Positions 5,989-42,436 are shown, counted from the first letter of the whole stretch. The stretch is DNA of 56,276 bases, filler included, from Perkinsus olseni (GCA_013115125.1; 4 parts of 4 records of this genome joined end to end with filler, not necessarily neighbours in it), one strand, 5' to 3'. The notes: generated from the letters alone by a model not told the origin. Made by a program: numbers and translations.

Positions 5989-8900
5989 TTAACAACAGCT
6001 GGCCAACGTAATACCGAAGATCACTGAGTTGATTCTCTTGCCGAGATGTCGCGTATTTCCTGATGGTAGAAAAGGTCGCGTTGAGATTCGAACCTCAGCG
6101 GTCTTTGGGACCTCGGGTTACAAGCCTCCCCGGCGTGCCTTGAGGTTGGATCGGGTCTGGTAACCACTGTTCCAGACGACGGATTCGACGGCAACTCCAC
6201 TCTAGTCGAATATAATTGCAGTAGTGTCGGGATATTCGTCAGAGGGCTCAAGGGATGCGGAACATAGCAGCAGTCATCAAAGTCCTTCGCCGAGTATCCA
6301 CGCACGCCCTATGTCCGACGCATCCTTGCCTCCTGTACCAAGGAGCTCCCCCGGCCTATCACATACCAGCAGTGGCGGCTCGGTGATCGATGTGGGTGTC
6401 TCCCTCTGGGCCGGAGTCCATGGTTTGGGTCTTTGTAGGCACAGTCATACGTGAAAAGGCTGAGCAGTACCTGTGACTCTCTGTTGAAAGAGAGGATAAG
6501 GCTGAGGTAGGGTCGCGCTCCACAAGCGCTCGCTGCTGCTGCTGCCGCCGCCGAAGGTCAATAGGCAAGCTGTATATGTCGTGTATTTACCATGGGCGTT
6601 CCCTGAATGGCCGTTGGTATGGGTGGCAGAACAGAGTCTCGCCTAGACCCTGACCCAGCGCCCTGCGTGTGGCAGGCTCCAGCCTCGTGCGAAACTTTCG
6701 CGGCGAAAGCCACGCTACGTATAGGTACGGAGGCAAGAAGCCAGCCCAACGAAGGCAGCCCCACTCAGTATCGTTGCGGTCTCTTGATGGAGATCCTGGT
6801 CGGTGTAAGGAGGATGGGCTACCTCTAGCATGAGTTCACTCTTCACCCTCCTCAGCTGAATCCCGCACTCCTGACGAGGGGGCCATGTCCGTATCCGAGT
6901 TGAGATCTATTACATTCGACAGTTCTACGACCTGTAGAGCTCGTGGCCTGCCCTCCCGCGAGGACCTGCTGAGGAGAGCGAAGCTGTAGGTGGATGAGAA
7001 AGCTAGTACAGTATCCGTGATGGAGGGTATGACGAGGTTGGACGATGTCTCATTACCACCGAGGAGTAGTGACCAGCTCGACTCCTGAATAGAGTCGTCG
7101 CAGACTCGTGCATTTGCTATCGACCTCTGGGGCGAGGGATTTCTTTCGTAGGTGCCTCCAACGGCTTCGTGCTAGCGGGTTAGACAATGGCCCTGATGCC
7201 ATTCACAAGCAAGCCCGTGCTGCACTGGCAATCGCACGCTACATCGCTGACGATCCACGGTCCACCGAACGGGAGCGCGAGATGGCGTCTGCAGTAGGAC
7301 GATCTGAGGCAATTCCTGGGGAGCTCATGGCCCCTTAGGAGTTCATGTGGGCCATAGTCGACGCTGATCTGGCTTTGAAGGAAATAAGAGCTCCAGATTT
7401 GAACTTCGAGGTATTCACCTACGCTCATGGACGCTCCCTTCTGTACCGTGGCATGAAGGCCATTGGGTCGGGGATGCGATTGAACTCGCCTAGGCAGGCC
7501 GTGCTCGCGTGCTGCGCACACCTCAGGCCACCTCCCTTCTTAGAGAAGCGGCGGAGATAGCGGTGTTGGCTAGGTAGCTCTTAGTGCGCTAGACTTGGAA
7601 CTCTACGAGGAGAGCAGATCTCAGAATCGAGTACGCGGATTTCCTGAGCACCGGCTCTGAAGAAGAGTCACTCGAGAGCAGGAAGCTTCGCAAGGATGCC
7701 ATGCTGCTGTGTCGAAGTCTCAAGAGAAACGACGGCCAGCCCGTCCTTGAGCCTGGTGGAGTCAATTGCGTGTTTGACAGTTTTGCTGTTGGCTCTGTAC
7801 AACTCAGGCTCCTTAGCGAGAAGGCTCGCAGAGGAAGCTTACAGCAGCACGTTCTACTCCGCCAACTCCTTCAACTCGCTTACTCTGAGCTCATCGAAGG
7901 CCGGCAGCAGGCCGGCGGCGCCCTCCCGATACAGCTTCCGTCCCCACTCCAAGCACCGGTAGCGTGCCTCCGATACTCCTCCGAGCGCATCGACTCTCCT
8001 CCACAGAGCAGACCTAAGCTCGGCACTTCAGGCCTCGGACTCCGCCGGACGCTAGCCTGATTACTGTCCCTCTGCCCAGCATTCCTAAGCCTACTGCAGG
8101 AGCGCCCAAGCGAGTACTTCGCTCCCGTTGTTGAGGATGGTGCCCTCATAGACACCCTCAGGCTTTACTGACAGCACCCAGAGTGAAACCTCGTAGGTCG
8201 AAGAAGATGAATCCTTTCCTGAACTACGAAGACTTGGGGAAGCTGCAAGCTCAGAAGCGACTATGGCTCTACACTGACGATGATTATGTTGGGAAGGGAG
8301 TCGGGTCTTTCTTCGAGCAATCTTACCTAGATTCGGGCACGGATTCGAGAGTTTAAGGACGATATCGCACAGTTCCACCGTGGGCTCGAGGAATCCGATC
8401 CCAACGCTCTCTATGAGCAAGTGGTGGAGTACTCGTCATTCGGCATGAAAGCTCGAGTGAGTTGGGGTGGCGTTATAGCACCGTCATCGCCCGGCGACCG
8501 ACGCGATCTCCCGTTCCTTATATTAGCTGCATTCGACCTCGTAAGTCATAGTGTAGATGATTGAGTTGGGTGTTAGGTCAAAGCCCAAGCCCGGCACCCG
8601 AAGGTGGAAGCTGATAAAGGTAAGGAGGTGCCCCTGTACTGTACTGGAATGTCGCGGTACTACGCGGACCCTAGGCCGTTCGGACGAGGCCGTGGCTCTA
8701 CCGAAGATTAGAAGCTTCGCAGAGTCTCGCAGAGGATCACGGTAGGCGAGAATATCTGACCGGTCCTCTCCTGCTCGTCAGTCTGTGTATACAGGGCGCA
8801 GTCTTCTTTCGGTGTCAATGCTAAGGCAGAGAGTGATTTTGCTAGAAAGCTGTCTGCCATCGAGAAAGCCAAGGACCTGGGAACCCTAGCGAGGATCATT

Positions 8901-11798: not shown

Positions 11799-13888
11799 TC
11801 ATGTTGCATCGAAGGCTCCACTCTTTGCAGTCACAAATGCCGTCCGGGATAACTCTGGGTTCTTACTGTTCGGCATGGGCGGCGGAAGGGGAGGGGCCCC
11901 TGTCGGAACCACCGGGCCTCTGACGGGAGATTGCCGACTACTCGGAGACCCCAAAAGTATCGGCTCCGAGGTAGCAGCAGTTCTCGTGTACCGCTGCACG
12001 AAGTCGCTGACGTCAACCTGTCCCGATTGGTTCTTCTGTGCGAGCCAGTAGATCCTGGATGCACCGCTGTTGTCCAGGTCAGGGCAGCACTTCTTGAGGA
12101 CTCGCTCGAAGCCTTGCTGGTCGACGATACCACCCATCTTGTGTGCCCCGACTGCTTTGAACCGGTCGAATAAATCCTCAGTCGCAACCTTGCCAAGTCT
12201 CTCTCGGGCCCACTGCTCAAGACCCATCACTTTGCTCTGGGAGATTGACTGGAGCCCCGCTTGAAACCTGTGTAGAGGTATCAGTCCGCCGGTCCCCGCA
12301 CTAGAACTGGCATCTGGACTCCGGGATAGAACAGTGGCCACAACCTCGGCCTCTGTGACGGAGATACTAAGGTTCATCCCAAGTAGAGCCTGCATGAAGT
12401 CATTGGGGTCTAGAGCTCCGTGCCCAGCCTTATCAAATTTTGCGAAGGCTTGCACCCAGTTGAACTTCCGCAATATGAACTCTCGCCGAATTCTCATCAT
12501 GCATATGGTGTAGTACTCGTCGATGTCGGACGTCGTCGACATAGAGAGGGATGCCTTGCGGCGTTGAGGAGACGGTGGAGGCGGAATGGTCCTGCCTCGT
12601 TCAGACCCGCTAGGCCTCCGCGGCGGAGGTGGCGGTGGTATGGAGCTAGCCTTGGTCGGGCTCGATGCTGCGCTATTCGATGGCTTCCCTCTGGCTCCAA
12701 GTGAACCCGTCTTAACAGTGGGGACTTTTGACGCTGAAAGGGATTCTCCTGGCGGTGGCGGACCGTCGATGAAACGGCGAACATACGGATCGCTCAGTAT
12801 ATCCGATGTCGAAGGGCGCTCCTCAGCGGACTTGCATAGAAGCCGTCTGATGAGGTCATTAAGACTTGTCGAGTAAACATCAGGAGGTATCGGCTCGTAG
12901 TTATCACTGACGACTTTGTAGACAAGTCCCCACAGCGAGTCCGCTCGGAATGCGTGTTGAAGCATGCAAAGTTCATAGAGCACACATCCCAGAGCCCACA
13001 CGTCGGACTTGAAGCTGTAAGGCTCGTTACGACAGAGTTCAGGGCTCATGTAATAGGGCGTGCCAACGACAGTGAGGCAAGCTTCCATCGTACCCTCCAG
13101 TACTCGGCTGATTCCAAAATCACCGAGCTTCACTGTGGGGAACTCGTTACCGTCTTGCTGAGTGAGGAAGACGTTACTTGTCTTCAGATCCCTGTGGAGT
13201 ATCTTCCTGCTGTGGATGTATTCGAGGGCTTGAGCGCACTGAGTGAACCAAGTCATCACATGCCTCTCCGAGAAGTGTCCCCCAGCTTTCTGTTTCTGCT
13301 TCACAGCCGTGCGCAAATCTCCCATATCGCAGAAGTCCATAATGATGCCCAGAACTGAGTGAGGCGTCTCCACGACGAAGTGAGTATGGTAGGAAACGAT
13401 GTTTGGGTGTGACAACTTCTGCAGGAGGTCGACTTCTTGTTCGGCGAGTCGTCTGTCGGACTCATTGAGGACATCGAGGTTCACTAGCTTGGCCACCAGG
13501 AGTACTCCAACGTCGTCGTTCGGGTGTACAAGACACGCGCTCGCGTATTGGCCCCTGAAGCACCAATGAAGTGTGAGCAAAAGGCGCGGTTTGCAGTTAG
13601 CACTCCCCTCAAGTAAAACTGAACCCCGAAAGGAACCCCAAGTATGAGTTGAACCCAACTGCGGTCTGACTGACGATTCAGATATTTACTGACAGTTTCA
13701 AATTATTACACTCAGAACGTCTTAGTGGCACCCATTCCTTTCTAGAGAGAAGCTCATCATGTGTGTTACACATTCCCCGCTTACTTTCCAATGTATTTCA
13801 CCGACTCGTAGCCGAAAGGTTTCATGTCGACGGAGAGGCTGAGCTCCTCGCTACTGCTGCCAGCGTTCCGATCGTCCTCTTGAGCCAT
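11799..13888 (-). CDS. NIMA-related (NEK) Ser/Thr kinase with Pro-rich linker and C-terminal EF-hand-like region; exons 13785-13888 and 11799-13554
   Basis: Splicing restores YIGK|GQYASA. Motifs HRDLKTSN, DFG, VGTPYYMSPE and KSDVWALG are present. EF-hand-like segments FDKAGHGALDPNDF and QKNQSGQVDVSDF. Confidence 0.93.
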
Positions 13889-14103: not shown

Positions 14104-14203
14104 NNNNNNNNNNNNNNNNNNNNNNNNNNNNNNNNNNNNNNNNNNNNTTAATTAATTAANNNNNNNNNNNNNNNNNNNNNNNNNNNNNNNNNNNNNNNNN
14201 NNN
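14104..14203. other. Artificial contig-join linker
   Basis: N44-TTAATTAATTAA-N44, giving stops in all six frames. Confidence 0.98.
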
Positions 14204-14478
14204 TCCGAGCGAGACCAGCAATAGTAGCCGGATACGACGGAATATCATCAATAAAAGGGCTAAATTAATCATAATATTAAATAGGCATCCCACTCATCAT
14301 ACTTATATCATCACTGGGCCTATCTCGGACGCACGTCCGACACAGTACAGCCAACATCGCAAAAACTACTAAGGAAGATCAAACTGCGCTGTACGGTTGA
14401 GGAAATGCAAGTATGAGTGAGAGTGCAAGAATCACTCTCTTCGCGCAGGCTTTGCTCGGTAGTCGTCGATCACACAGG

Positions 14479-15767
14479 ATGTCAACTCGCTCATCTTCGT
14501 ACCCGCTGCTGACTGGGCTGTCATCGATTCATAAGGCTCCTAAGTGGTCTATCAGGGTAGTATCGGGGGAACGTCGGGGTTGAGCTTGGAAGATACAGAA
14601 TGGGTTGGGTTAGGGGTCACCGGCTACACCGATCGGGAGCGGAGTGTTGTCGTAACTCAGGGTCGGGGTCCGTCAAGCCTTGTAAATTCTGAAGCTGGCA
14701 GCATGCCAGGCCCTGGTACGTACGCTAGTGAGAGGGTGTCCGCCGTCGTTAGCAGGTAAGACGGCCAAGGATCAGTACAGAAAAGGTCCCCGGATCGTGA
14801 CTCATCAGGTTCACCTCTTCTCCGCAGTTCGGGTTTGGCACGGCATCTCGCGACCCTTTCGGTGGTCGCAAGAGAGGTCGAGCTGCCGTACCAGGCCCAG
14901 GGGCCTACACGCCTAACAACGCTGACATGCTATCAACTGCCAAGTGATAATGCCACCTACTCAAACGAAGCCTTCATCGGTCGTCTAGATACGCCTTTGG
15001 ACGGTCATGTCGGAGATCCATCGCTGATGGTCGAAGTGGTACCCCCGGACCGGGCGCGTATAGCCCATCGTGCTCCTTGGGAGGGCCCAGGTACCACCTC
15101 TACCTTCTGCTGCCAGCCCTGGTCATTCTAACTGTCAGCTACTCTACTGGATCTAGATGGGATGCTTCGCGGTCTACCCAGTCCATTGTACCAGGGCCAG
15201 GCCAGTAGGGTTGACGACGATGATCGCGCAGGCGTGGCGTATAGCGATCGGTAACAATCAGATATAAGGCCGCGATGGCCAATACTATATCGGGCCACGA
15301 GACTTCACCGAGTTGGGGGTTCGGCAGCTCCCAGAGGTACTGCCGCCAATACTACCTCGACACAACTTACCGGATTCTCTCTACAGGCCTCCTATTGGGT
15401 CTGCCAGCTTTGTGTCTGCTAGCCGACTAGAAGCGGATTCATCGTTGAGCCCTGGTCCGGGCACGTATGAATTGGGGACCTGCATAGGGCCGAGGACGAG
15501 TAACGAAAGCACAGCGTGAGCACGCCTGATCATCCTACTGGAGCGTAGGGTACGGCGCCTCGGCACCCCAGTTCACCATACGACAACGACGTCGGTCAAC
15601 AGGGGGCGGACGAGGTAGTTTCAGTACTTATTGCGAGTGGGGGTCATGATCGTCGTCCCGTTATCAGACCGTAGCCCTGGCCCTGGGGCTCATGGTGGTG
15701 CTTACACCCAATTCGGGTAAGTCGGTTTGCTAGTCTTGTGCAACTACTCGAATCATGTAGATACTGA
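14479..15767 (+). CDS. SHIPPO-1/ODF3-like PG-rich repeat protein (flagellar), multi-exon
   Basis: Repeated PGPG(T/A/Q)Y motifs near 14705, 14890, 15040, 15190, 15450 and 15675. Starts MSTRSSSYP...APKWSIRG and ends GGAYTQFG|Y*. Confidence 0.85.
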
Positions 15768-15900
15768 AAAGCGTCGTCTTACGACGTCATTGGCCCATGA
15801 GAGAAAGTACACTTAGACGCTTGTTGTGATGTCACTTCTATAGTAGTGCCGAGTTGAATAGGATTTGGGAGAGTATAGTACAGTTACAGCTGCCTTGCTC

Positions 15901-18900
15901 ATGCCCTTCCAACCTTCTGCTCAACCCCGGCCCGATATCACCGAGAATGAGGATGGTTACTCCTCCAAGGGCTACATGCGGTGTCTAGTGGAGTATCTTA
16001 GTAGATGTGGGGTCGGACGGTCTGCCCTTGAAGCACAAGTCTCGACGGCTCATGGTGGTAGTAAGGGAAAGGTGGAATTTTGTGGTGCAGTGACGGTATA
16101 GGTGCTGATCGTGTGAAGTTGAAGTGTTATCCGTTGGATGAGTTCTGTGCGGGAGAAGGAGCAAATGAAGAGGAGGCAACGGAGGAGGCTGCCCGGAAGG
16201 TCCTGGATGTTCTAGATGGGAAACAGCTATTGGAGGCCAGGTAGTAGCGGAGAGGTTAACAATGTCGTTTGTCATGCGTGAGGGCTAGGGTTCGATTCAC
16301 GGGTGTTCCTTTTCGCAGGGGCCGTCGTTTAAATTTAATGTTGCGGAAATATGGCGGCAACGACGCAGTGGTGGCCAATGGCGGCAATAATATGAAAGAT
16401 GTAATTTCGTACACGGCTCATCATGGCGGAGCGGAGCTGTTTTTTCATGGCAGTTGGTTGAAAAATCCAAGGATGTGGGGAGCCCCTTCTACACGCTATT
16501 AGAGGATGCAGCAGATGATGAGGGGAAGCTTCAAGGTAGCGAGGCAGTCGTCGTGGTGTTGGATGATGGTGATGCCTTGACAGATGCTAGCTTGTTGGTC
16601 TTACAGTCGTTGATGGCCTCTCCTACCGCTGAGAGCCTCTATGAGGATGCCACTGCCTTCTTGAGGAAGTAATTGGTTTGCTCGCCTAGAACTAGCGGCT
16701 ATTGAATTTCGTTCGGTCGCAGGAGAGTTTTAACTTATCAGCTCACTCACTGGGCGCGGATGGCTGGTGGAATATCGTTACACTCTCGATAGTAGTTGAC
16801 GGCGTCCTCGCTCATCTCCCCCGTTTTGTACTCAGATTGGGAGGGTCCATGCCACCTTGGGTAATGATAGATAAACCACCAGCGTGCCTTCTTGGGGCTG
16901 TTCATTGGTGCCTTCTGGCCGTTATCACTGGCCAGGTGAGTGGGGTGTCACGGAATCTTTCCAAGGGCTCCGTCTTTTGGGATTATCATTCATGAGGCCC
17001 GTTAGTTCATAGTGTCTGACTGCTCCACAGTAGTGATTTAGTGTGCATCCTCGAGATGATTGAGTGTAGTTGTGAGTGTGGTCAGGTCGATGGAGTTGTG
17101 CCACAGAGTCAAGAGGTCATCATGCCATGCTTGTTGGCATTGGAGCATGTGTAAGTTGGCCAGGACTAGAAGCGTTGAGGATTATCAAGATAGTGTGAGG
17201 CCTCAAGATTTGATGCAGGTATCTTTCCTGGGCTGCTGAGTATCCTGGCTTCTCCCAATTCTCATCCGAGCTCGTGAGATACATGCTTGTGACGCGGAAG
17301 GCTCCGATGCTTGCGAAAACGAGGTGGGAACGAACGGAGCCGGCGGAGCGATGCTTGTTTTTGTTATTAATTGTTCCAGGTTGGAGTGCTACGAGTTGCA
17401 AAGTCTGCCTTCGGAAGCTGCTAGGGACATCGCTGTACCCTACAGGCAGATAGCATGTGAGCCAGCGGAATCAGCGGAGCGAAGCGTGAATTGTTTTCGT
17501 GATTTCAGGCACTGATGCGGAGGATGCGGACAATGAGTTAGAGCTATTAGCGGAGGATATGTTTCCTCGTCCGGAGAGGATCGATTGGCTCCATCAGCAG
17601 TTCAACGAGGTCAATGAAATTGTAAGGTGGACAGTCGTCCTGCGTGTTTTACGATTTTCTGTCAGTTGATGGGCTCGCCGCTAGGTGTTGGGGGTAGGGT
17701 ATATGGCAGTCTCGTGAACGGCTTCCCGACAGCGCATAGTGATATTGATGTTGCCGTTGAATTGAGAGAAGAAGTCAAGGAGGAATTACTGTAGTAATGG
17801 AAGGTTGGTCGGAATATCCCTGAGTCTTGGTTTCTTTCTGGATCTCTGCGAGATGAGTCCCAGTAGCAGCCTTCTCGGGAGGTCCCAGGTTGAAGGGTTG
17901 GCAGACGTGTGAATATCTTCCTTAGTACGAAGCAAATTGAAGCAGCCAGGGAGGAGGCTCAAGCAGAGGGTAGTGGCTTGAGTGATAGAGAGGAGGATAA
18001 CGACAAGGAGATGACTACCAAAGCTCGAGATCGGAAGGCTACTATAGCGGCTATCGAGCTACTGGGGGAAGAGTTCGACAAGCGGGGGTGAGGGCAGCTA
18101 CTGCAGATCGTCGTAGCCGCTCCCTGTAGAAGTTCACGTTACATGGTTCTAGGTATGTTGTTAATGAAGTCGTATCAGCTCGAGTACCGATACTGTTGCT
18201 GGTTAAGGAATTCACTGGTAGGGGCTCTCTTGTCGATTGGTCGTGGCAGATTGTGACAATGGCAAGGTCCTGACGGTGAGAGGGAGAAGGTGGAGTTTAA
18301 TCTCTCTTTTGATCACGAGATTACACTTTATAATTCAAGGTTGCTGAGATGCTACGCTATGCTCAGGCCTGAGGTAAGCCTCATCAGCAGACGGAGCAAT
18401 TTCGTGGCGCAGTGACTAATATATTGTTATCAGGTACGGTCGTTGGTGGTCCTGGTCAAGCACTGGGCTAAGACCAGGGATGTCAATGATGCCCTCAACG
18501 GCACTTTTTCCAGTTACAGGTGAGGCCGTACTCCGATGGGGCGTTCAGAGACTTTCTCGACGGCTGCTACGGCGATGGCGGAGTGGAGTTTTGATTTTTT
18601 CTTTCTTAATTTCAGTTATGTCTTGCTGGTCATATTTTTCTTGCAACAGAAGGGTATATTACCTTCCTTACAAGATCCTCGCTGCTTTCGAGATGTCAAG
18701 TCGGAATGGATAGTCGATAGGTAGAGCGCAGCACCGTGTTGCGAAAGGTCCTCGGTTCGATCCACAGTGCTTTCATCTTCAAAGATTTCCAGATACGTCG
18801 ACTCGAATCAGCATCATGTATATTTCTTCGATTGGCTATCCACTGGAGTCACGGACCCGCAGGAAGCCCTCAGTCGATTCTTCCTACCAGAATACGCTCA

Positions 18901-20601
18901 TAAGTGAGAGAAAAATGCGGAGTGATGGGGTCGATCCTGCGGCCTCAGATCCGTACCGAGCCTATCGCGCCTGTTATACGAATTCTTCGATTTCTACACG
19001 GAAGTCTTCCCGAGCTACGAATCCGTCGTCGACGTCCGCTCCATCGGCCCGCCGGTGTCCAAGGAGGACTACTTCAAAACGGAGCTGGTCAAGCTGATCA
19101 AACGTATGGAAAAATGTGGTATTACCCTTATGACGTTGAGATAGCTAGAGGTGTCAGAATCCCGAGAGTGTGCAGGTAGCAGTGGTGGTGATGATGACAG
19201 TGATGAAGGGCCTTGTCCGACTCTTGATACTGTGATGGGGCTGAGACGTCGGCGTGCGTGGCTGTCTATAGCTGATCCATTCGAGGACCTCAGACTGCTC
19301 GGTGTTAGCCCGAGAGGGATGGAGAGGCTGATGCAGGAGATGAAGAGAGCTTTGGCTGTAAGCCGATGATGATGCTCCTGCTGCTGCTGCTGCTGCTGCT
19401 GCTGTCGCTTTATTGCTCCGCCTCGCTGTTATTTCATTTTTTCGTGTTTGTAGCTGCTGGATCATCCGAAGCCGAAGGTTAGTTGGATTGAACGCCTGTT
19501 TTCAACACAGAAGGTGGCCAGAGGGAAGAAGGAGTTCAACCACCCCCGCAAGGCAATCGATAGGGCGGCCCATAATTGGGGGACGTATCATGACAACAGC
19601 GTGGAGGGCATTAGGACGAGGTGAGGTTTGGCCGAGTGGTTGCGGTTGTGGGCTGGTAACCTCGAGGTTGGTGGTTCAAATCCTTATCCAGTTTCATTTA
19701 TTATAATTCAAGCGAGTCCGCCGAGGCCTTCTGCCGGAATCCTGAGCTTGATGATGCTGCCACGTGGATGGCTGTGAATAGGGCGTGGACCTGGGCTACC
19801 CGAGGGGTTCCATCGACCCACGCCATGCTGAGGTGAGTAGAGATCGAGTAGGTGTATTGTGGTATCGGTAGTGGTTGTGTAAGGTTTGATGTATTCTGCT
19901 GCCTTACCATGTTGGAGGGTGTCAACGTCACGTCTATTGAGTGCGTAGAGGCACTGCCGGGCCATAAGCTCATCAATAAGAGCAGCGCTGGAGATGGTGA
20001 TGAAGCTGAGGGCGAGGTGATGAGAGTAGTAGTGATGAACCGCTCTATAAGTTGCGCTTTAGTGTGTCTTGCTGTCATGATCATCGTGGTTTCAGTCGGA
20101 AGAGCTCAGTATGGAGGTTGTCTGCAACATACCGCGGTTCCAGCAAGACTTGGCTAATGCACGAACGATGCGTCGCTCCGCCGCCCAACCACCGACGAGG
20201 CAACGGTCTCACGGCGGCTGGACGGACGATAACAGCAGCCGGACGCAACGCAGAGACTGGGGGAATCGGCGACAACAGCAGGAGCGGCGGGCCGATCCAG
20301 ACTATGATCGACCGGAGACAGAGAACAGAGGCAAGAAGGCGCCGTATCAACCGGGAAAGGCTGAGGCACCTCAGGTTAGTCGATAGTGGCGTTATCGGGG
20401 TTGCATGTGTAAGGGTTAGGTTAATAGCCGTGACCAAGATACGGGGGCGAATCTCAGTAGAAGAGGCTTCCATGTTAAGAGCAAGCACGGCCGATCACGA
20501 GCTAAAGATGACTACAATGGCTACGGAGGAGGTAGGGAGGTTCCTGGTTCGATTCCTGGTAAGGACTATATTCAGCGAATAATTATACCCGAGGTTGGTA
20601 G
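15901..20601 (+). CDS. Cid1/TUT4-7-like terminal nucleotidyltransferase (non-canonical poly(A)/poly(U) polymerase), many exons
   Basis: VYGSLVNGFPTAHSDIDV (GS..DxD), [53 protein letters not shown] and LSIADPF. That 15901-17600 belongs to the same gene is assumed. Alternative stop at 20632. Confidence 0.88.
16238..16310 (+). pseudogene. Decayed tRNA-Asp(GTC)-like relic filling intron 16241-16318
   Basis: T8 at 16245, GTC at 16271 (+26) in loop TT-GTC-AT, and TTCGATTC at 16291 (+20): canonical spacing. Stems are mostly broken. Confidence 0.6.
18704..18775 (+). pseudogene. Decayed tRNA relic straddling the exon/intron boundary at 18720/18721
   Basis: TAG-TCG-ATAGGTA-GAGC D-arm pattern; GCGAA-AGGTC-CTCGG-TTCGATC 3' half; 5 of 7 acceptor pairs. 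Confidence 0.55.
19378..19404 (+). repeat. (CTG)9 microsatellite in an intron
   Basis: Directly visible trinucleotide run. Confidence 0.9.
19622..19694 (+). pseudogene. Decayed tRNA (Asn-like body, anticodon position GGT) filling intron 19621-19712
   Basis: A-box TGGCCGAGTGG, D-stem GCCG/CGGT fully paired, loop CT-GGT-AA, then AGGTT-GGTGG-TTCAAAT-CC, all at canonical offsets. Confidence 0.75.
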
Positions 20602-20798
20602 CGGTGATGATGAAGCCGCCCCTGTATCATGACTGCCCAGTAAACTATTACGGTGACATTGATAAATAAGATTGATCGATACTCCTCACCTGTCTCCTCC
20701 GTATTTTTCCAACTGTACCATTTCATAACCCGTGAAGGCTTCTTGTGTTGGTCAATGACCCTTTGGTCACATCGTGGCAGTCTCAGTCTACAGTAGCT

Positions 20799-23700
20799 AT
20801 GTCCATCCTCTCATCGTTGGGTCCATGGCGGGCCTGCCGAGCTAACTCCTTGCCGCTCCCGTTGGACGCCTCCTTCGACAGCCCATCGTCCACATCATCA
20901 ATCGACCGTATCAATGCACACCTCAACAGTGTTATAGTAGAAGACGTTAGTTTGGAGGTAGGACAGCTACGCTCCGCCGCCGCTTCCACTTTTACGTCAG
21001 GATGTACCGCAGGATCTGGGCCGAGAGATTCGACCGATGATCGAAACGCAAGCTTGTCGTTCTCGGAGAGAAGGAAATGTGTCGCCCGTGGTGAGGTGGA
21101 TGGGAGGAGCTCCCTGAGCAACGGCAAGATGTCAGGCTGCAAAGTCGCCGCTGGGACAGGGGGCAACTCCACCATCGGAGGAACGGCCCCCAAGGAATGT
21201 CAGCAGTGGCAATCGTCTCACGGTGAGCCCATCGGCTTGGCTGTCTCTTCGGTAGGCCCTTTGCTAGGTACCTAGCAGATCTCTGTTCAAGTCGCAGGTC
21301 TTAAGAATTCCGGCCGATAAGAAATCACCTGTCGCGATAACTACGCCGGACACGAGGACGCCGTCGGGTGAGCTACGGCTCGTCTTGCTCCGTCAGTAGC
21401 AGTACGTGCTAGGTGGTCGGATGACGAGTCCGAAGCCACGACCAGCAAGCCTTATCATATCACGGTCTTTGATGGAGGAGGAGGAAGCTCCACCGGAGGC
21501 GCTGTTATCGGTCGCCGGCAAGATGAGTAGAAACGCCTCTTCTTGATTCTGCTTCGCTCCGCCTTTTTTATCAGGTCACATCTCAGTGTCATCATTCACC
21601 CCCAATAATAACGCAACCCCCCTAGCATCGTACCCCTCCTGTCGAGCTAATGAGTGTGTCCTCAACAGCAACAACAACTGGTCTCCAGCGGGCAACCAGT
21701 CCGTCTGCGCACCACCATCCTCGATCGGCTTCGAAACGGGGGAGGGCCTGTCCAACCAAATAAGCGAGAAGTGCTTCACTCAGGACGCTCAATGGAAGCG
21801 TGCAGTAGAGGAGGTCCGACGGGCGGTAAGTCCGTCGCCTTTCGAGGTCATTACCATCGGCGGGCGTGCACAGGTGCAGAAGTCAGTTGCCCGGGGCTGC
21901 GCGGCCTCCCCCTCCGAGTTGGTAGCCGATCTCTTGCGAGAGGGGGCTGCCGAGCTGTACGGCTTCTGGTCCCTCAGCGAGAGGTCTCTCATGCCCATGA
22001 TAGATCTCATAATGGGAAACTCTAAAATAGTGCCCTGTCGTGAGGCTACTATGATGAGGTAACCACTGGAGTACACGGCCCATACCACGGGTTGCTAGGC
22101 TTAGGTCCTCTGATGGGAACACAGTAGTGCCCCTGACTACGTCGGAGGCTGGTCCTCTGCTGTCATGGTCTCCATCGTTTATCACACGGCGGTGGAAACG
22201 AGGGTTGGCATTGTTCGGGATGGGCGAGCCATGGGATGATAAGAAGACTTGCTTCATCATCATGGATCTATTCTTTTTCACCATATCACTCGCCTACGGC
22301 CTCTACGTGAGGTGAGGAGGGTCCAACAGCCATCGTCATCTCAACAGCTTGACAACTCGACAGCTCGTTCGAATTATCATGTCTCTGCGCCGTGCGTTTT
22401 GCAGCGACTATAAAGGAAGACCGCCCCAGTCGTCGTCGCCTAACGCGCCCCGCTCACGGAGACGCCGACTTCTTTGTGCTCAGATACGGTCGTCCAGCAG
22501 GCCAATTATTGGGCTTTCCTCTGGTCCTCGCTCGTGGCGGAGCGATGGGCACGCTCCTGTACAGTATTGCCTTGTTCGCTACTATGAGTCGTCGTTTAAT
22601 CACATCGTTGTATAAGATAACTGAATATAAACCCTTGTTACATTCCCTTTCGATCCACGTACACTCAGCCTGGCTGCTGGCAGTGTATGTTGTGGTGAGT
22701 CGAGCCCCTACTCGGATCATCGCTAGGGTCTGACCGTCAGGTGCACGTCTTTGGCCATTTGGTCGGCACAATACCAGTGTTTATCAAGAGTAAGCCCGGC
22801 ATCATAAATTCAGTACGCCTCCACAGCAGGCTCAACACTGTCCTAGAGAGTCCCTTATAGGTATTAGTCTGTGCCAAGCCGGGTTTCGAGCCAATCCTAC
22901 CGTCATTGGTCCCCATTCGCCCATCGTGCCCCCTTGACTCAACCCCAACGGTGTGGGGCATATTTTCGAGCACTGTTGGTTGGTCGGGTGCCGCCCTCAT
23001 TTTACTACTTGCCTTCATGTATGAGTATTCTACTCTTTCTTGCACGTACCGATCGGCTTTCAGGGGGCGGTATTCTCGTAAGAAGTTTCGATGGTCTCAT
23101 TACAAGACATTTCAATTCATACATACTACATGCATGGTCCTCTACGTTTTACTGCTTTACGTAAGTCTGTGCTGCCTTTAAGCTCGCATACTATGGTGGT
23201 GAACATCGGCTGTGTGGTCTAGTGGTATGATTCTCGCTTAGGGTGCGAGAGGTCCCGAGTTCAATTCTCGGCACAGCCCTTCTTATGGCTACTTAGATAC
23301 ATGGTTCATCACAGCTGCTGGGGCACGGTTTGCCTCTCGTAGTTCCCATCGTCATGCCCATATGTCTGTTGTATGGAGACCCACGGGCGTCGGCCAAGGG
23401 AACTCTCTGGTCTCAGGTACTTATTCTTCCGAATCCGGCGGAGCTTTCATCGACGCGTACGTATAATCCGGGCAGAGAGCGTGAGCTCGGAGCTGCTCAG
23501 GATTGACATTGCCACAGGCGAGAAATTCGTGAGGCGGTGCAGCCCAGGGTGACTCAGTACCGGTCTTGGGATTCGAACCCGAGACCTCGAGGTGTTCCTT
23601 CAGGATGTATGTCCATGTTCTCTGTCCAGAGATCTCATGGTTCGAGTGGCATCCATTCAGCGTTGCCAACTGGCCTGCTCTTGGCACGGGCTTCGTCCGG

Positions 23701-25110
23701 CTGTTGGTCAATACCAAAGGAGATTGGACAAGGCAGCTTCACCGGAGGTGACCAACATCCCAGATTCGAGCTGTTGGGCGTGATGCCGGCCATACTTGCT
23801 ACTATGCTCAGGTGCGAAGAGAAACCGAACGACCTGCCTAAAGTGAAGCTGGACGGACCTTTCTGCGCTCCTGCCCAGAGCATCAAGGCAGATGTCACTA
23901 CGTTGACCAAGGAGACAGCTCCGAAGCGATCACTGACTAAAAAGTTGTGGAATAGACGGAGTGTCAGCGTAGGTTATCGGCGCTTCTCTCACAGTCCGTC
24001 GTTGGTCAATCACACCCATTCAGACCAGAGACTTGGACTACGCTAGCGATAGCGATGAGGAGGCCGAGGACGACATAGAGCAGGGCCAGCTCGGTGTCAC
24101 GGCGTCGCAGCCTGATTGCGGATGCTCGCTGGATGACGTTATCGTATGCATTGGTGCAGGAGTTGGCATCACACCCTTCTTGAGCAGCCTTGATGCCATG
24201 TTGAAAAAGGCCGCGGCACATAAGGCGTCAGGAGAACAGGCCGAGATTGGTAGGAGCAAGAAGGTGAGCGCTGCGGGGCCGATGGATGGGAACTGGTACC
24301 CTTCGAGGTGTGGTTCTACTGGCTCACTCGGAACGCCGGGGATTTCCTCTCTGGCGTGAGCATCCTACGGCAGCTCTCAGCAGCTGCAACGAAGGTGCTG
24401 CTCACCGGGGACACCGGCCTGGCTGGGCTGACAGAGGTCCACCTGAGGCTACACGTTACCGCGGCAGTCGGGGTGAGTGGGCAGCAACACCACCACTGTG
24501 TCGGTGTAAGATCTTCCTGCCTCAGCCCCTGCAGCTACAGAAGCCCTCAACATTCCTCTTTCATGAGAGCCTTAGTAAGGTTATCTGCCTTCAGATGGCC
24601 ACGGCTCGGACGCCGTCCGACGAGGATACCAAGTAGGTAAAAGCTCGATGGTCATCGGTCATTCACAGCTCCTGCAGGCAAGCCTTCATGTGCGACATCC
24701 CCACCGGGTCGTCAGTACTGCACGACTCGTACACAGCGGACTCTGATGACTCCGCCACAGCTCGAGAGGGCCCCAGCAGCAGTATACCCATCCGTTTTGG
24801 CCGCCCTTGCTGGCCTCAAGACTTCGTGAAAATCGCATTCAGTGATCGTTGCCCGCTCCACCAAGGCCACATAGCATCTGCTCCCGCGCCAGTGGAGGCT
24901 CCGACCAAATGGGTGTAGGTTTCCGTTATCCCGCCTCGAGTATCGGTCCCCTGTTTTGAGGTATCTATGCGGTAACACTAGGCTACAGGCAGATGTAGCT
25001 GATGCATGCCGATGGGCGTCCAATGAGACCGGCCATAAATTTGTACTCTCGCGGAACTACTGCTGCCACTACTCCAGTTCTGTCAGGTACTCATGTGTGA
25101 AGAGTTCTGA
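20799..25110 (+). CDS. NADPH oxidase / ferric-reductase-domain flavocytochrome with long low-complexity N-terminus, multi-exon
   Basis: LARGGA; TM3 H-x13-H-x3-H (HVHSAWLLAVYVV|VHVFGH); TM5 HTTCMVLYVLLLY|IH; FEWHPFS (FAD); LDGPFCAP; IGAGVGITPF (NADPH); FGRP; YLCG; C-terminus F|VLMCEEF*. Confidence 0.9.
23208..23279 (+). tRNA. trnP-AGG: tRNA-Pro(AGG), inside NOX intron 23161-23296
   Basis: GGCTGTG/CACAGCC acceptor, CTCGC-TT-AGG-GT-GCGAG anticodon arm, CCGAG-TTCAATT-CTCGG T-arm. Confidence 0.97.
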
Positions 25111-25496
25111 TCTTTTGAATGGCTCTGCAAGATCGCTGTTACATAGTTCTGAATCATCTATTATTCCCTCGGCACATTCGATCCTTCTTCCTCCCTTTCA
25201 TCGCTATCAAGTTCATCCACTCTAAGCCGTCCAGTGTCGGGCGCGCAAGAAGCTCCCATCTGATGTATATACATTCTCGATCAGCATGCCTCTCGACCTC
25301 TCTGCATGGAGCCAGTCTCCTCTTCACGCTTGGTTCGGCACATGAGTTGTCAATCTCGTGGAGTGTAACTATAACATTTTCAGCCATTACTCACCAACAC
25401 TGATGACCCCAGCCAAGCAATGGCCATCGCATCATCGCCAACACGTGAGCCATTCCGCGTCCGGCGATCCTTCGAGGAATCGGGATGTTTCAGGCC

Positions 25497-27210
25497 ATGG
25501 GCGTTTTGCCCCTGATCTTGGTCATCGTCACCACGGTGCCATGCTGTGCCGTGTCGAAGAAGTCCCACACTGCTGATCTCACTGTCTCCGGAGAGAATCT
25601 AGTTGAACGTGCCATGTTGGACCCCATCTATCTGCAACAGGAGAGTGAGCACGACGACCATCCGTCAGTTGCCCATGTCGGACTGCTGCTGCTTAGGACG
25701 CGCGCTGTATTACCAAATTCCCGTCGGCGGCTCAACGCCACTGGCTCAGGGGCCGGGCAGTGATGAAAACTCGAGGAACGTGGCAGAACTGTTGGAGTAT
25801 CTGCAAGCCTTTAGGCGTGACATCGACACTAAGGTAACTATTTCTTGCTATCTTGAGGGACCTTACATCTCCTTTATGCCATATTATGTCAGAAACCAGG
25901 CCATGGGAAGGTGGTGGACGTACCGAACGCTTTGGCGAAGCCCTCCCACACCGCACCTTCCCAGCAGCAGCAGTTGGAGCCATCCGAGGCCGTCGGAGTA
26001 ACACATGGGATAGAGTGGTCCGTCGCTGACAGTTATTTGCATAGGTCAACCACATGCTCGCGGCTCGCGGTAGCTGCCGAGCCTTCGCTGAGCAGGGCTG
26101 TCTGAATCCGGACCTAGATGCCATGCCCGACGCGCAGCGTGAGTATCGTGCTGCTACCGATATTCACACTGGCCTCGGTGCCAGTACTCGGACCATGCAG
26201 GTGTACTCGAACAGGCCTCCGACAGTGGGCTGGCCAGTAGCACACGAAGGATCTCAGTCGAGCAATGCCGCGAAGACGTAAGGGGGTTACATTGCGTATC
26301 CTTCCTCTCATCGAAGTCTCAGACCTGTGACGCCGGAGCATGTTCGGATACGTCTAACGAGCTGATGTGCCGAGGATGTCTCCGTAACTGCTTCCGGTGG
26401 GATAAAGAGACCGACTTGACAGTTGGGAGCTGATGGACTACTTTCAGTTACTGCCTGTTCCAGCACGAGCTGCTCTGTATGAGGCGACTCTGTGCTTCCT
26501 CGATCCTCGCTGCAGTAGACTCTTTTGTGAAGACTGTCGGGAGTGGTCACGGCCCGTGGGCTGGGAAAGGGGAGGCCCTGGCGAAGGTATGTGCGGCAGC
26601 TGTCAGCCTGCGGCTCCACTATTTGGTCGCAGGCGATCGGCGTGCAGTACTCCACCCTGCAAGGGCAGCAGATAGGCGAGACTGCCAGGTTGGTGTGGAG
26701 CATAGAAGTGGTGAGGACAGCGCTTTCATTGGTCTTCAGATGGGTCCACCAGATCATGGATCGGGATGTGACGCATCCCCGATGCACGGAAGAACATACA
26801 GCCGACAGCGACCCGACAGGATACTTGCACAAATTGGTAAGCCAGTTGGGAGGATCGAACCCCCGACCTTCAGTTTACAAGACTGATGCTCTGCCACTGA
26901 GCTAAACTGGCTGTATTTTGTATGTCTGGAGTCCTGTACGCACGACGAGTTCATTCAGGTCACGTGCACTCAGAAGTCGCCTCGAGTATCGCTCAAGAGG
27001 GTAGACGAGGACAACATAGAGCCACAGGTCTTATGCGCCGACATGCCAGAAAGGAGTGTCACTGACGGTGAGTCACTGGTGAAGCCCTTGAGTCGATTGA
27101 TTGGGTTGCCTTCAGGCGGGGCTCCAGTAAACTTCACGGCCGTTGCTGATCGAAGGTCACGCCGACTCTGGATTGACATGACTAAAGATGCCGCGATTGT
27201 GCATGTGTGA
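25497..27210 (+). CDS. Hypothetical secreted Cys-rich protein, multi-exon
   Basis: Signal-peptide-like MGVLPLILVIVTTVPCCAVS; Cys-rich exon CDAGACSDTSNELMCRGCLRNCF; frame is continuous across intron 26837-26958. Confidence 0.6.
26840..26911 (-). tRNA. trnT-TGT: tRNA-Thr(TGT), antisense inside intron 26837-26958
   Basis: Reverse complement: GCCAGTT/AACTGGC acceptor, GCTC/GAGC D-stem, TCAGT-CT-TGT-AA-ACTGA anticodon arm, T-loop TTCGATC. Confidence 0.97.
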
Positions 27211-28075
27211 TGATGCGTGATGCTCTTCGGTGGAGACATTGTCTGTTGCTATTATACTTGGGTAGGAAGTACACTCAAGCCAGACTAATAAGCGCCGTTC
27301 TGCTGTTCGAAGCACAAACCAACTCCATCGGCGAAGCAAGCCAGCGGGTCTCGGTTCCCCGCAGTTCACATTCCTCCTCACGTCAGACAACGCGACGGGA
27401 TTGCAAGGAAGAATCCGCGAATCCACTTTAACTTGTTCGTCATGCTTAACTTGAGCAATCTTCTTCTCACTTGAACAGTGATCAAACAATAATCTCTTTC
27501 TCAAACAGTTGAAGATGTTCTGCATCCACCATCTTTGCATCCTTCCCGGTGAGTTGTGGCCCGCGTAGCGATTGACTAATGTAACAAAATGGCGCATTCA
27601 AATTGTAATACCGTTGAGCTTCATACATATCCGATCACCGGAAGAACATCGTCAAACAACAATCTCATGCGTGAGTCCGAAGACTAGGGCGCCGGAGTTT
27701 CTAGATGATCCTCTCTCTGTTGATATCCTCGAAAATTTTCACATCTGCTGCATTCACCTTTTCATAGACTTCGCAGAGATCCTCATGCATCTCAGTGAGC
27801 TGATAATCCCTCTCAGGGATGTGTAAACCCGCTCCGAAATGCCTCCTCTTTACCATGACAGACCGGAGGTGGCTCAGAACTTTCTTACAATCCTTCTTAC
27901 TCTCGTAAAACCTCAAGCGGGGTAGAGAACCCCGACTTATCTCAGGGAGGGGGTCGAGCTCTCGGTTGATCGCGTAAATCCTGCCACGGACGTGCTGAGG
28001 GTTGGTTGTTGGGGCCGTTATACTTCTGAGGGCTGCCACTCCCTCTCCGGTTACGTCGCTGAGAAGACAGGCCAT
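27157..28075 (-). CDS. Hypothetical protein (ORFs 27701-28075 and 27157-27597; structure unresolved)
   Basis: Two protein-like - strand ORFs; no recognised domain. Confidence 0.3.
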
Positions 28076-28272
28076 CGACCAGCAAGCTCAGCTACAGCGG
28101 TGATACTGCCCCGTTGCATTGCCAACCATAGTAAATCGAGCGTGGGGTGAAAGACGATCCTTACTAATGGAAAATGTGATGCGGGCACATAATCATTGTA
28201 TGACGAACTACACGAAGCCCGCGCAGTGTAGAGTGGTGCAAATACAGAGACGAAGCAAGCGCTCGCCTGCGG

Positions 28273-28372
28273 NNNNNNNNNNNNNNNNNNNNNNNNNNNN
28301 NNNNNNNNNNNNNNNNTTAATTAATTAANNNNNNNNNNNNNNNNNNNNNNNNNNNNNNNNNNNNNNNNNNNN
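28273..28372. other. Artificial contig-join linker
   Basis: N44-TTAATTAATTAA-N44. Confidence 0.98.
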
Positions 28373-42336: not shown

Positions 42337-42436
42337 NNNNNNNNNNNNNNNNNNNNNNNNNNNNNNNNNNNNNNNNNNNNTTAATTAATTAANNNNNNNN
42401 NNNNNNNNNNNNNNNNNNNNNNNNNNNNNNNNNNNN
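42337..42436. other. Artificial contig-join linker
   Basis: N44-TTAATTAATTAA-N44. Confidence 0.98.

Follow-up and report, generated by a model that had tools for sequence, protein, structure and literature searches.

In Perkinsus olseni, transfer RNA (tRNA) genes and the remnants of such genes were found within very short spliceosomal introns of three neighbouring protein-coding genes. Perkinsus is a parasite of oysters and clams and belongs to the perkinsozoan alveolates. The analyzed stretch of DNA (the window) comprises 56,276 nt and consists of four genomic pieces of 14,103, 14,069, 13,964, and 13,840 nt, for which adjacency in the genome is not implied. The pieces are joined at 14104-14203, 28273-28372, and 42337-42436 by a synthetic linker, which is built of 44 N, a 12-nt spacer with stop codons in all frames, and another 44 N. 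All elements of the finding are confined to the second piece (14204-28272, about 14 kb): two intact tRNA genes, specific for proline and threonine, and five relics, which are designated R1 to R5. The observation is real and statistically solid. The proposal of the preliminary description that tRNA genes end up in mini-introns and then decay is supported, with 7 of 62 introns carrying such an element and a graded decay from intact genes via full-length relics to 3′-half relics. As to the history behind this gradation, we lean towards a sequence in which tRNA genes nest in mini-introns, die, and are trimmed to minimal size, with part of their sequence being reused as splice signals.

The exon-intron junctions were obtained by exact mapping of P. 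olseni protein models from databases, which are computed models and not sequencing reads. The models P0121, P0286, P0276, P0283, and P0284 translate exactly only when GT-AG introns are removed at the sites of the elements. The introns needed are 16241-16318 for R1, 18721-18792 for R2, 19621-19691 for R3, 23161-23296 for tRNA-Pro, 23549-23603 for R5, and 26837-26958 for tRNA-Thr. Together with the intron of R4, which is spliced in some models only, all seven tRNA elements are intronic in the mapped models. The full set of 62 GT-AG introns lies within 14703-27207 and includes the introns of a PG-rich repeat gene, the upstream neighbour of the first host gene. These introns have a median length of 51 nt, and 38 of them fall into the range of 44-53 nt. 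Within the gene span of 12,505 nt, exons account for 8,063 nt, introns for 4,002 nt, and intergenic DNA for 440 nt, and introns represent about 90% of the non-coding DNA at the locus.

The tRNA origin of the elements was analyzed with pattern searches on both strands of the window. The signature AGGTYNNNGGTTCRANYC represents an 18-nt variable loop plus T arm and was searched with up to one mismatch. Seven matches were obtained, compared to 0.14 expected, and none of 100 shuffles reached seven. The matches are exactly tRNA-Pro, tRNA-Thr, and R1 to R5, and no others occur in the window. R2, R3, R4, and R5 match the signature, which covers B box and variable loop, perfectly, and R1 matches it with one mismatch. 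The B box alone (GGTTCRANYC) had 29 matches versus 2.06 expected, 20 of which are supplied by a tandem tRNA-Leu array.

A bipartite pattern was also applied, consisting of an A box (TRGCNNAGNGG) upstream of a B box at a fixed spacing, with up to two mismatches. With a spacing of 44 nt, R1 (16245-16298) and R3 (19629-19682) were found without any mismatch, and a third match was present at 12327 with two mismatches (3 matches versus 0.08 expected, 0 of 100 shuffles). With a spacing of 43 nt, the matches were tRNA-Thr (no mismatch), tRNA-Pro (two), and R2 (two), again three, versus 0.05 expected and 0 of 100 shuffles. R1, R2, and R3 had been described as full-length relics with canonical offsets, and their boxes are indeed found at 43-44 nt with 0, 2, and 0 mismatches, respectively. 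These three relics have kept the internal promoter of RNA polymerase III (Pol III), that is, A and B box at a distance of 43-44 nt; R4 and R5 comprise only the variable loop and the T arm. Taken together, the sequence patterns show a tRNA origin of the seven elements, as a set, far beyond chance.

Two further sites, at 13646 (minus strand) and 44240 (plus strand), exhibit a B-box match only. Another B-box match is located at 6085 within the region 6040-6154 on the minus strand, where CTTGTAA, similar to an anticodon loop, precedes it. After the match come a T4 run, a pyrimidine tract, and CAG. A possible start codon is situated about 90 nt further downstream, and the spacing of the site is non-canonical. 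The region could be another tRNA relic beside a splice acceptor or trans-splice acceptor.

The two tRNA genes that had been reported as intact and intronic were both confirmed by ARAGORN and by the Rfam model RF00005, and both lie inside mapped introns. The tRNA-Pro(AGG) gene (23208-23279) is located on the plus strand in the 136-nt intron 23161-23296 of the second host gene and has the same orientation as this host. It begins 47 nt past the donor and ends 17 nt short of the acceptor, and it scored 56.9 bits with RF00005 and 58 bits with a purpose-built tRNA covariance model. This model was constructed from 18 phage T5 tRNAs and the two Perkinsus tRNAs described here and is not tuned to eukaryotes. 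The tRNA-Thr(TGT) gene (26840-26911) is located on the minus strand in the 122-nt intron 26837-26958 of the third host gene, to which it is antisense, and it scored 69.1 bits with RF00005 and 69.8 bits with the purpose-built model. Among the seven elements, only these two reach the gathering score of RF00005, which is 29 bits. According to the gene models, both are intact and lie wholly between donor and acceptor, as is characteristic of nested intronic tRNA genes. The junction at the tRNA-Pro intron unites two histidines that are 13 residues apart in a transmembrane segment of P0283. We take this spacing to be that of the haem-ligating histidine pair of the family, which presumably favours this junction.

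The surroundings of the two intact genes were also analyzed. The donor hexamer of the host (26837-26842) overlaps the final 3 nt of tRNA-Thr. Apart from the tRNA, the intron is made up of just 3 nt and 47 nt from the upstream region of tRNA-Thr itself. This upstream region contains a 12-nt motif (26931-26942, minus strand), which elsewhere occurs only upstream of units of the tRNA-Leu array. The motif TGCGTNNAGGAC has 10 exact matches, versus 3.3 expected with up to one mismatch, nine of them in the Leu array and one in the tRNA-Thr intron; the upstream motif TGCGTYTAGGAC is present at nine units of the array. Because the intron holds a motif that is otherwise found only ahead of the Leu-array genes, this suggests that tRNA-Thr has an upstream promoter element of its own and looks autonomous. 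No T4 terminator was present within 50 nt downstream of tRNA-Pro or tRNA-Thr. In the tRNA-Leu array, by comparison, a T-run was present 7 nt downstream of all 10 units examined, with four Ts in nine units and three Ts in one. This difference would be the only hint at the splicing-coupled tRNA expression that the preliminary description had considered. The sense-oriented tRNA-Pro has neither a terminator nor the 12-nt motif. Two intact intronic tRNAs without ordinary terminators, one of which overlaps the donor, raise the question of how they are expressed alongside host splicing.

The tRNA-Leu array itself is located at 100-2400 on the minus strand, has a period of 188 nt, and contains ten to eleven intact units with TAA and CAA anticodons. 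One unit, at 288-361, is degenerate, and Leu-like units in a more decayed state are found at about 2100-2400.

The relics differ in how much of the tRNA is left and in how the splice sites are positioned relative to it. R1 (16238-16310, plus strand) is full length as judged by its A box (16245-16255) and B box (16289-16298). The donor of its 78-nt intron (16241-16318) is at tRNA position 4, and the tRNA 3′ end is occupied by a T4 run (16310-16313), which is followed by the CAG acceptor. P0125, a divergent allele or paralogue with 90% identity, has the same junction at this site. R2 (18704-18775, plus strand) has an A-box-like sequence at 18711-18721 and a B box at 18754-18763. Its 72-nt intron (18721-18792) starts with a donor GT at 18721 in the D-loop, at tRNA position 18-19, and therefore the 5′ 17 nt of the element, including the A-box-like part, are exonic. 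In an alignment of P0121 with 34 homologues, the protein segment around these 17 nt is of variable length, which is compatible with a tRNA origin of the exonic 17 nt as well as with another origin.

R2 has one further property. Its intron contains an imperfect inverted repeat (18729-18771) with about 15 nt per arm, which brackets the T-loop region. On the minus strand, this repeat gave a weak match to a microRNA family hairpin (14.8 bits, E 2.1), far below the gathering score.

R3 (19622-19697, plus strand, 76 nt) is a tRNA pseudogene that has retained its full length, and its D arm is type-II-like. Its annotated intron is 19621-19691, and thus the donor G is the base preceding tRNA position 1 and the acceptor cuts 6 nt short of the tRNA end. 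An alternative acceptor at 19712 would enclose the entire relic, and both acceptors keep the reading frame. The best local alignment of R3 to a tRNA of the window was obtained with tRNA-Leu (score 44). The full-length relics had been assigned to introns of 72-92 nt. This holds for R1 (78 nt) and R2 (72 nt), but the intron of R3 has only 71 nt, as the annotated acceptor is at 19691 and not at 19712.

R4 (20538-20559, plus strand; variable loop and T arm) lies inside the 44-nt alternative intron 20532-20575. P0286 and P0276 splice this intron, P0121 reads through it as coding sequence, and P0284 employs the donor as well. A 48-nt intron at 16536-16583 is likewise read through by P0125, as 16 codons. 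The disagreement of the models at these two sites may reflect intron retention or noise in the annotation. R5 (23566-23587, minus strand) is an antisense variable loop and T arm and occupies most of the 55-nt intron 23549-23603, which is present in P0283 and P0287.

A tRNA end is found no more than 3 nt from the donor G in R1, R3, and the live tRNA-Thr. The preliminary description had placed four donors at tRNA position 4, at position 19, one base before position 1, and across the 3′ end of the antisense tRNA-Thr gene, and the mapped models agree with all of these positions. The donor and acceptor scores of the seven tRNA-bearing introns are within the range of the other 55 introns.

The relics were also analyzed with structure-aware methods, which did not yield uniform results. 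A search with RF00005 at low threshold had been proposed as a check. It recovered tRNA-Pro and tRNA-Thr, but no relic was reported at E≤10 in a search of 15 kb, and R1 and R2 were also not reported in searches of 100 nt. The purpose-built model detected R3 with 23.9 bits, corresponding to an E of 2.9e-5 in the search of the window and of 3.5e-6 in a search of 7 kb, and the alignment was full length, from position 1 to 74, with a paired acceptor stem. For R5 and R4 only the T arm was matched, with 13 bits (E 0.09) and 10.6 bits (E 0.5, positions 45-66), respectively, and R1 and R2 were not found with this model. By structure-aware methods, R3 is the only relic that is still a tRNA. R1 and R2 fail both Rfam and the purpose-built model, and therefore their stems are gone. 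R1 and R2 are thus tRNA genes with surviving promoter boxes, and R4 and R5 are 3′ halves.

When the thresholds of ARAGORN were lowered, R3, R2, and R1 were called at 87%, 85%, and 83% of the threshold, respectively. Shuffles of the 14-kb piece gave 0.8, 2.1, and 4.4 hits at these levels, and the calls were rejected as stand-alone evidence. The anticodons of these low-threshold calls are unreliable, and naming the isotypes of R1 to R3 from them was also rejected. Of the earlier statement that several isotypes are involved, it remains that the sequences are clearly different and occur in both orientations, but the isotypes of the relics cannot be assigned reliably. Minimum-free-energy folding of the relic stretches revealed no cloverleaf among R1 to R5. 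The z-score of the fold was -2.4 for R1, and the values for the others were -0.9, -0.7, +0.4, and -1.1 / +0.1, compared to a range of -1.7 to +1.2 for seven control introns.

The lengths of the introns give an indication of how the elements may have got there. The seven tRNA-bearing introns have lengths of 136, 122, 78, 72, 71, 55, and 44 nt, and they are longer than the other 55, which have a median of 50 nt (one-sided Mann-Whitney test, p = 0.02). Subtraction of the 72-nt tRNA from the two introns with live genes leaves 64 nt for tRNA-Pro and 50 nt for tRNA-Thr, which is the ordinary intron size at this locus, and these remainders fit an insertion into existing introns. The intronic position as such says little, because about 90% of the non-coding DNA of this locus is intronic. 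Direct repeats at the boundaries of the 62 introns were not in excess over a null of re-paired donors and acceptors, and they had lengths of 0-4 nt in the seven tRNA-bearing introns. A 4-nt repeat (CGAG) around the longer version of the R3 intron was considered as a target-site duplication (TSD) and was discarded, as it breaks the reading frame and is regarded as a chance occurrence. A scan of metagenomes with P0121 matched 54 stretches, none of which came from a relative.

The reading we lean towards would start with copies of tRNA genes that arise by duplication or insertion at the DNA level, in a genome with hundreds of tRNA genes. The copies would survive only in introns, since nearly all non-coding DNA of the locus is intron, and the near absence of intergenic DNA is, somewhat more probably than not in our judgement, the reason for the nesting. 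The insertion would lengthen an intron of about 50 nt by about 72 nt, as in the two live cases. After the death of the copy, the pressure that holds introns at 44-57 nt would delete the flanks and subsequently parts of the tRNA. This would leave an intron of tRNA size (71-78 nt) and later just a 3′ half (44-55 nt). During trimming, the tRNA unit would be reused, with its 5′ end or D-loop becoming the donor and its T-rich trailer the pyrimidine tract before the acceptor. The observed lengths of 122-136 nt with live genes, 71-78 nt with full relics, and 44-55 nt with half relics fit such a course of death followed by deletional trimming, and the elements are clustered at one locus. The tRNA origin and the intronic position in the gene models were observed, and the order of events and the trimming would be the most plausible connection between them.

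Several points weigh against this history. R3 is full length (76 nt) in an intron of 71 nt (or 92 nt), and trimming would have taken away nearly everything of the original intron but not the tRNA. The ends of R1, R3, and tRNA-Thr are no more than 3 nt from the donor G, which is tight for random insertion plus deletion. The A-box-like 5′ part of R2 is exonic, so that DNA of tRNA origin may be coding at this site, which fits an insertion into coding sequence or a shift of the donor; for the A box of R2 taken alone, the statistical support is weak, with a p of about 0.04 by our own estimate. In addition, the presumed intron positions are those of computed protein models. An alternative, which we regard as rather unlikely, is intron gain seeded by tRNAs. 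Copies of tRNAs with a T-rich trailer would have been inserted into coding sequence and spliced out, at least in the cases of R1 to R3, and the donor would have come from the tRNA 5′ end or the GGTA of the D-loop. The region of the Pol III terminator would have supplied the pyrimidine tract and the AG. Introns of Perkinsus would thus have been created by tRNA insertion, and the unit would then have decayed to an ordinary mini-intron, a course that we consider doubtful. It is favoured by the introns of R1, R2, and R3, which with 78, 72, and 71 nt are essentially one tRNA unit each and have their donors at tRNA positions 4, 18-19, and 0. R1 runs from A box to B box and T4 run directly into the acceptor, the exonic 17 nt of R2 fall into a protein segment of variable length (35 aligned homologues), and R3 is full length with almost nothing else in the intron. 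Besides its tRNA, the tRNA-Thr intron holds just 3 nt and the 47 nt upstream of the gene with the shared motif. Three elements lie no more than 3 nt from the donor, and the 62 dense and uniform introns in 12.5 kb resemble lineages with massive intron gain. However, no TSD beyond the null is present, the two live cases leave remainders of normal size (50 and 64 nt), and P0125 with its 90% identity shares the junction at R1, so that the intron of R1 is not very recent.

Three other explanations receive still less credence. The relics might be retained for a putative function, as sites for TFIIIC or Pol III similar to extra-TFIIIC (ETC) sites, as short Pol III units, or as splicing aids, which seems unlikely to us. 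The perfect A and B boxes of R1 and R3 despite decayed stems, the perfect B box and variable loop of four of the five relics, the T4 run kept in R1, and the reported influence of human intronic tRNA-like sequences on splicing (PMC7722341) would be in agreement with it. However, the relics were recognized by their boxes, and thus box conservation is largely due to ascertainment; in addition, the relics have kept no structure, and none of these elements occur in the other 42 kb of the window. A single mobile family, either a tRNA-derived short interspersed nuclear element (SINE) or an introner spreading through introns, is very unlikely and was rejected. Promoter boxes similar to those of tRNAs are typical of SINE heads, and introners are common in the related dinoflagellates (PMC7789003, PMC9860276). 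Nevertheless, pairwise local alignments among the relics gave scores of only 12-32 (with +2 per match), and little is common to them beyond the A and B boxes. The elements of up to 76 nt in introns of 44-78 nt leave no room for a body or a tail, both orientations occur, no signal of TSDs or terminal inverted repeats (TIRs) was detected, and the other three pieces contain no copies of the signature. The locus thus shows neither the near-identical family with TSD or TIR of introners nor the head, body, and tail of SINEs, and the argument of the preliminary description against a single SINE family, based on different isotypes and orientations, stands on these alignments, the missing body and tail, and the lack of excess boundary repeats. 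The last explanation, that the relics are ordinary intron sequences resembling tRNA boxes by chance, has next to no probability. Rfam and ARAGORN at normal thresholds miss all relics, and the low-threshold calls of ARAGORN are at the noise level of the shuffles. Against this stand 7, 3, and 3 pattern matches versus 0.14, 0.08, and 0.05 expected, with 0 of 100 shuffles each, and the E of 3e-5 for R3. Chance is refuted for the set of relics as a whole, and for the 5′ half of R2 alone it is possible.

The three host genes are all encoded on the plus strand. Gene 1 (15692-20632) encodes a Cid1/PAP-type nucleotidyltransferase with the Pfam domains MTPAP-like_central, PAP_assoc, and NTP_transf_2. 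It contains 24 or 25 introns and hosts R1, R2, R3, and R4, and P0121 (1033 aa) maps to it exactly through 24 GT-AG junctions. Gene 2 (20799-25110) encodes a protein similar to NADPH oxidases and ferric reductases, with the domains Ferric_reduct, FAD_binding_8, and NAD_binding_6. It contains 19 introns and hosts tRNA-Pro and R5, and P0283 (1059 aa) maps to it exactly through 19 GT-AG junctions. Gene 3 (25382-27207), the host of tRNA-Thr, is partial and corresponds to the downstream part of the fused model P0284, the exons of which map exactly; a Pfam search with this part of P0284 matched no family. Outside this locus, the first piece contains a long kinase exon, which shares 98% identity with proteins of Perkinsus olseni and 90% with one of P. 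chesapeaki. Together with the exact translation of the protein models, this assigns the DNA to P. olseni or to an organism very close to it.

Some additional features of the introns were observed. Five introns (22312-22483, 15717-15883, 16669-16835, 16936-17085, and 17791-17925) have lengths of 135-172 nt, which is roughly threefold the usual size, and have no recognized content; the first of them includes the string GTTCGAAT. These long introns could hold older insertions. The motif GCGGAG is present in 6 of the 24 introns of gene 1, for example 16401-16453, 17324-17379, 17457-17508, 18520-18615, and 18904-18948, often in the form GGCGGAGCG and 22-45 nt upstream of the acceptor. With 18 and 23 copies per strand across the window, slightly above expectation, it is a weak signal. 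On the exon side of the acceptors, the second base is T in 43 and the first base is G in 37 of the 62 introns. The GT or NT after most introns, together with the extreme uniformity of length, may be a lineage-specific feature of the 3′ splice site.

How new spliceosomal introns originate is a long-standing question, and most of the sources documented to date are transposons (introners). At the P. olseni locus, a tRNA origin is still readable in 5 of 62 mini-introns, and two more hold live tRNA genes. An intron can thus coincide in its extent with a complete Pol III unit of A box, B box, and T-run. If the introns are specific to this lineage, a new and previously unrecognized source of introns in an intron-dense alveolate would be given by tRNA genes. 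If the introns are old, the locus would show a strict policing of intron length, with inserted DNA being trimmed into splice signals. No account of tRNA genes or their relics as content or source of spliceosomal introns was found in the literature, for Perkinsus or elsewhere, in full-text searches. Among 104 Perkinsus genes, 69.2% are cis-spliced (PMC3101222). The main text of a study on introners contains the terms "tRNA" and "SINE" zero times each (PMC9860276). The part of PMC7789003 considered here draws no link between tRNAs and introns.

The findings can be compared with several known systems. In P. marinus, tRNA genes of five types are present in more than 500 copies and are targeted by Dada transposons (PMC3706591). 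P. marinus belongs to the same genus, and besides its hundreds of tRNA copies it has tandem tRNA-Leu genes like the array at 100-2053 of the window; however, in the Dada system transposons are found inside tRNA genes, and not tRNA genes inside spliceosomal introns (PMC3706591). No Dada sequence was noticed at the P. olseni locus, where no search aimed at it was made. Nuclear intronic mitochondrial-derived tRNAs (nimtRNAs) are likewise intronic tRNA-like sequences with a possible influence on splicing (PMC7722341). They are derived from mitochondrial DNA and reside in large human introns, whereas the elements of P. olseni are nuclear-type tRNA genes and relics in mini-introns.

Several processes of intron gain are also similar in part. 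Introners exemplify inserted DNA that becomes a spliceosomal intron and subsequently degenerates toward ordinary size, as may also apply to the elements at this locus (PMC9860276, PMC3609843, bioRxiv 10.1101/2020.10.14.339549). In contrast to introners, the P. olseni elements form no multi-copy family, are unrelated in sequence, and have no TSD or TIR, and their source would be a cellular Pol III gene instead of a transposon. Intron gain by filler DNA is known to include introns derived from organelles, and we know of no report of the capture of a tRNA gene. This gain occurs during the repair of double-strand breaks, and the capture of unrelated cellular DNA as an intron would be the feature in common (PMC3443670); in contrast, the locus described here carries no insertion footprint, as its boundary repeats equal the null.

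The closest counterparts are the nested intronic tRNAs of animals, for example of C. elegans, which are likewise intact Pol III genes within introns transcribed by RNA polymerase II and occur in either orientation (PMC4999229). In contrast to C. elegans, the host is a perkinsozoan protist, the introns with intact genes have only 122-136 nt, and more than half of their length is taken up by the tRNA. Furthermore, tRNA-Thr overlaps the donor hexamer, and dead copies fill introns of 44-78 nt.

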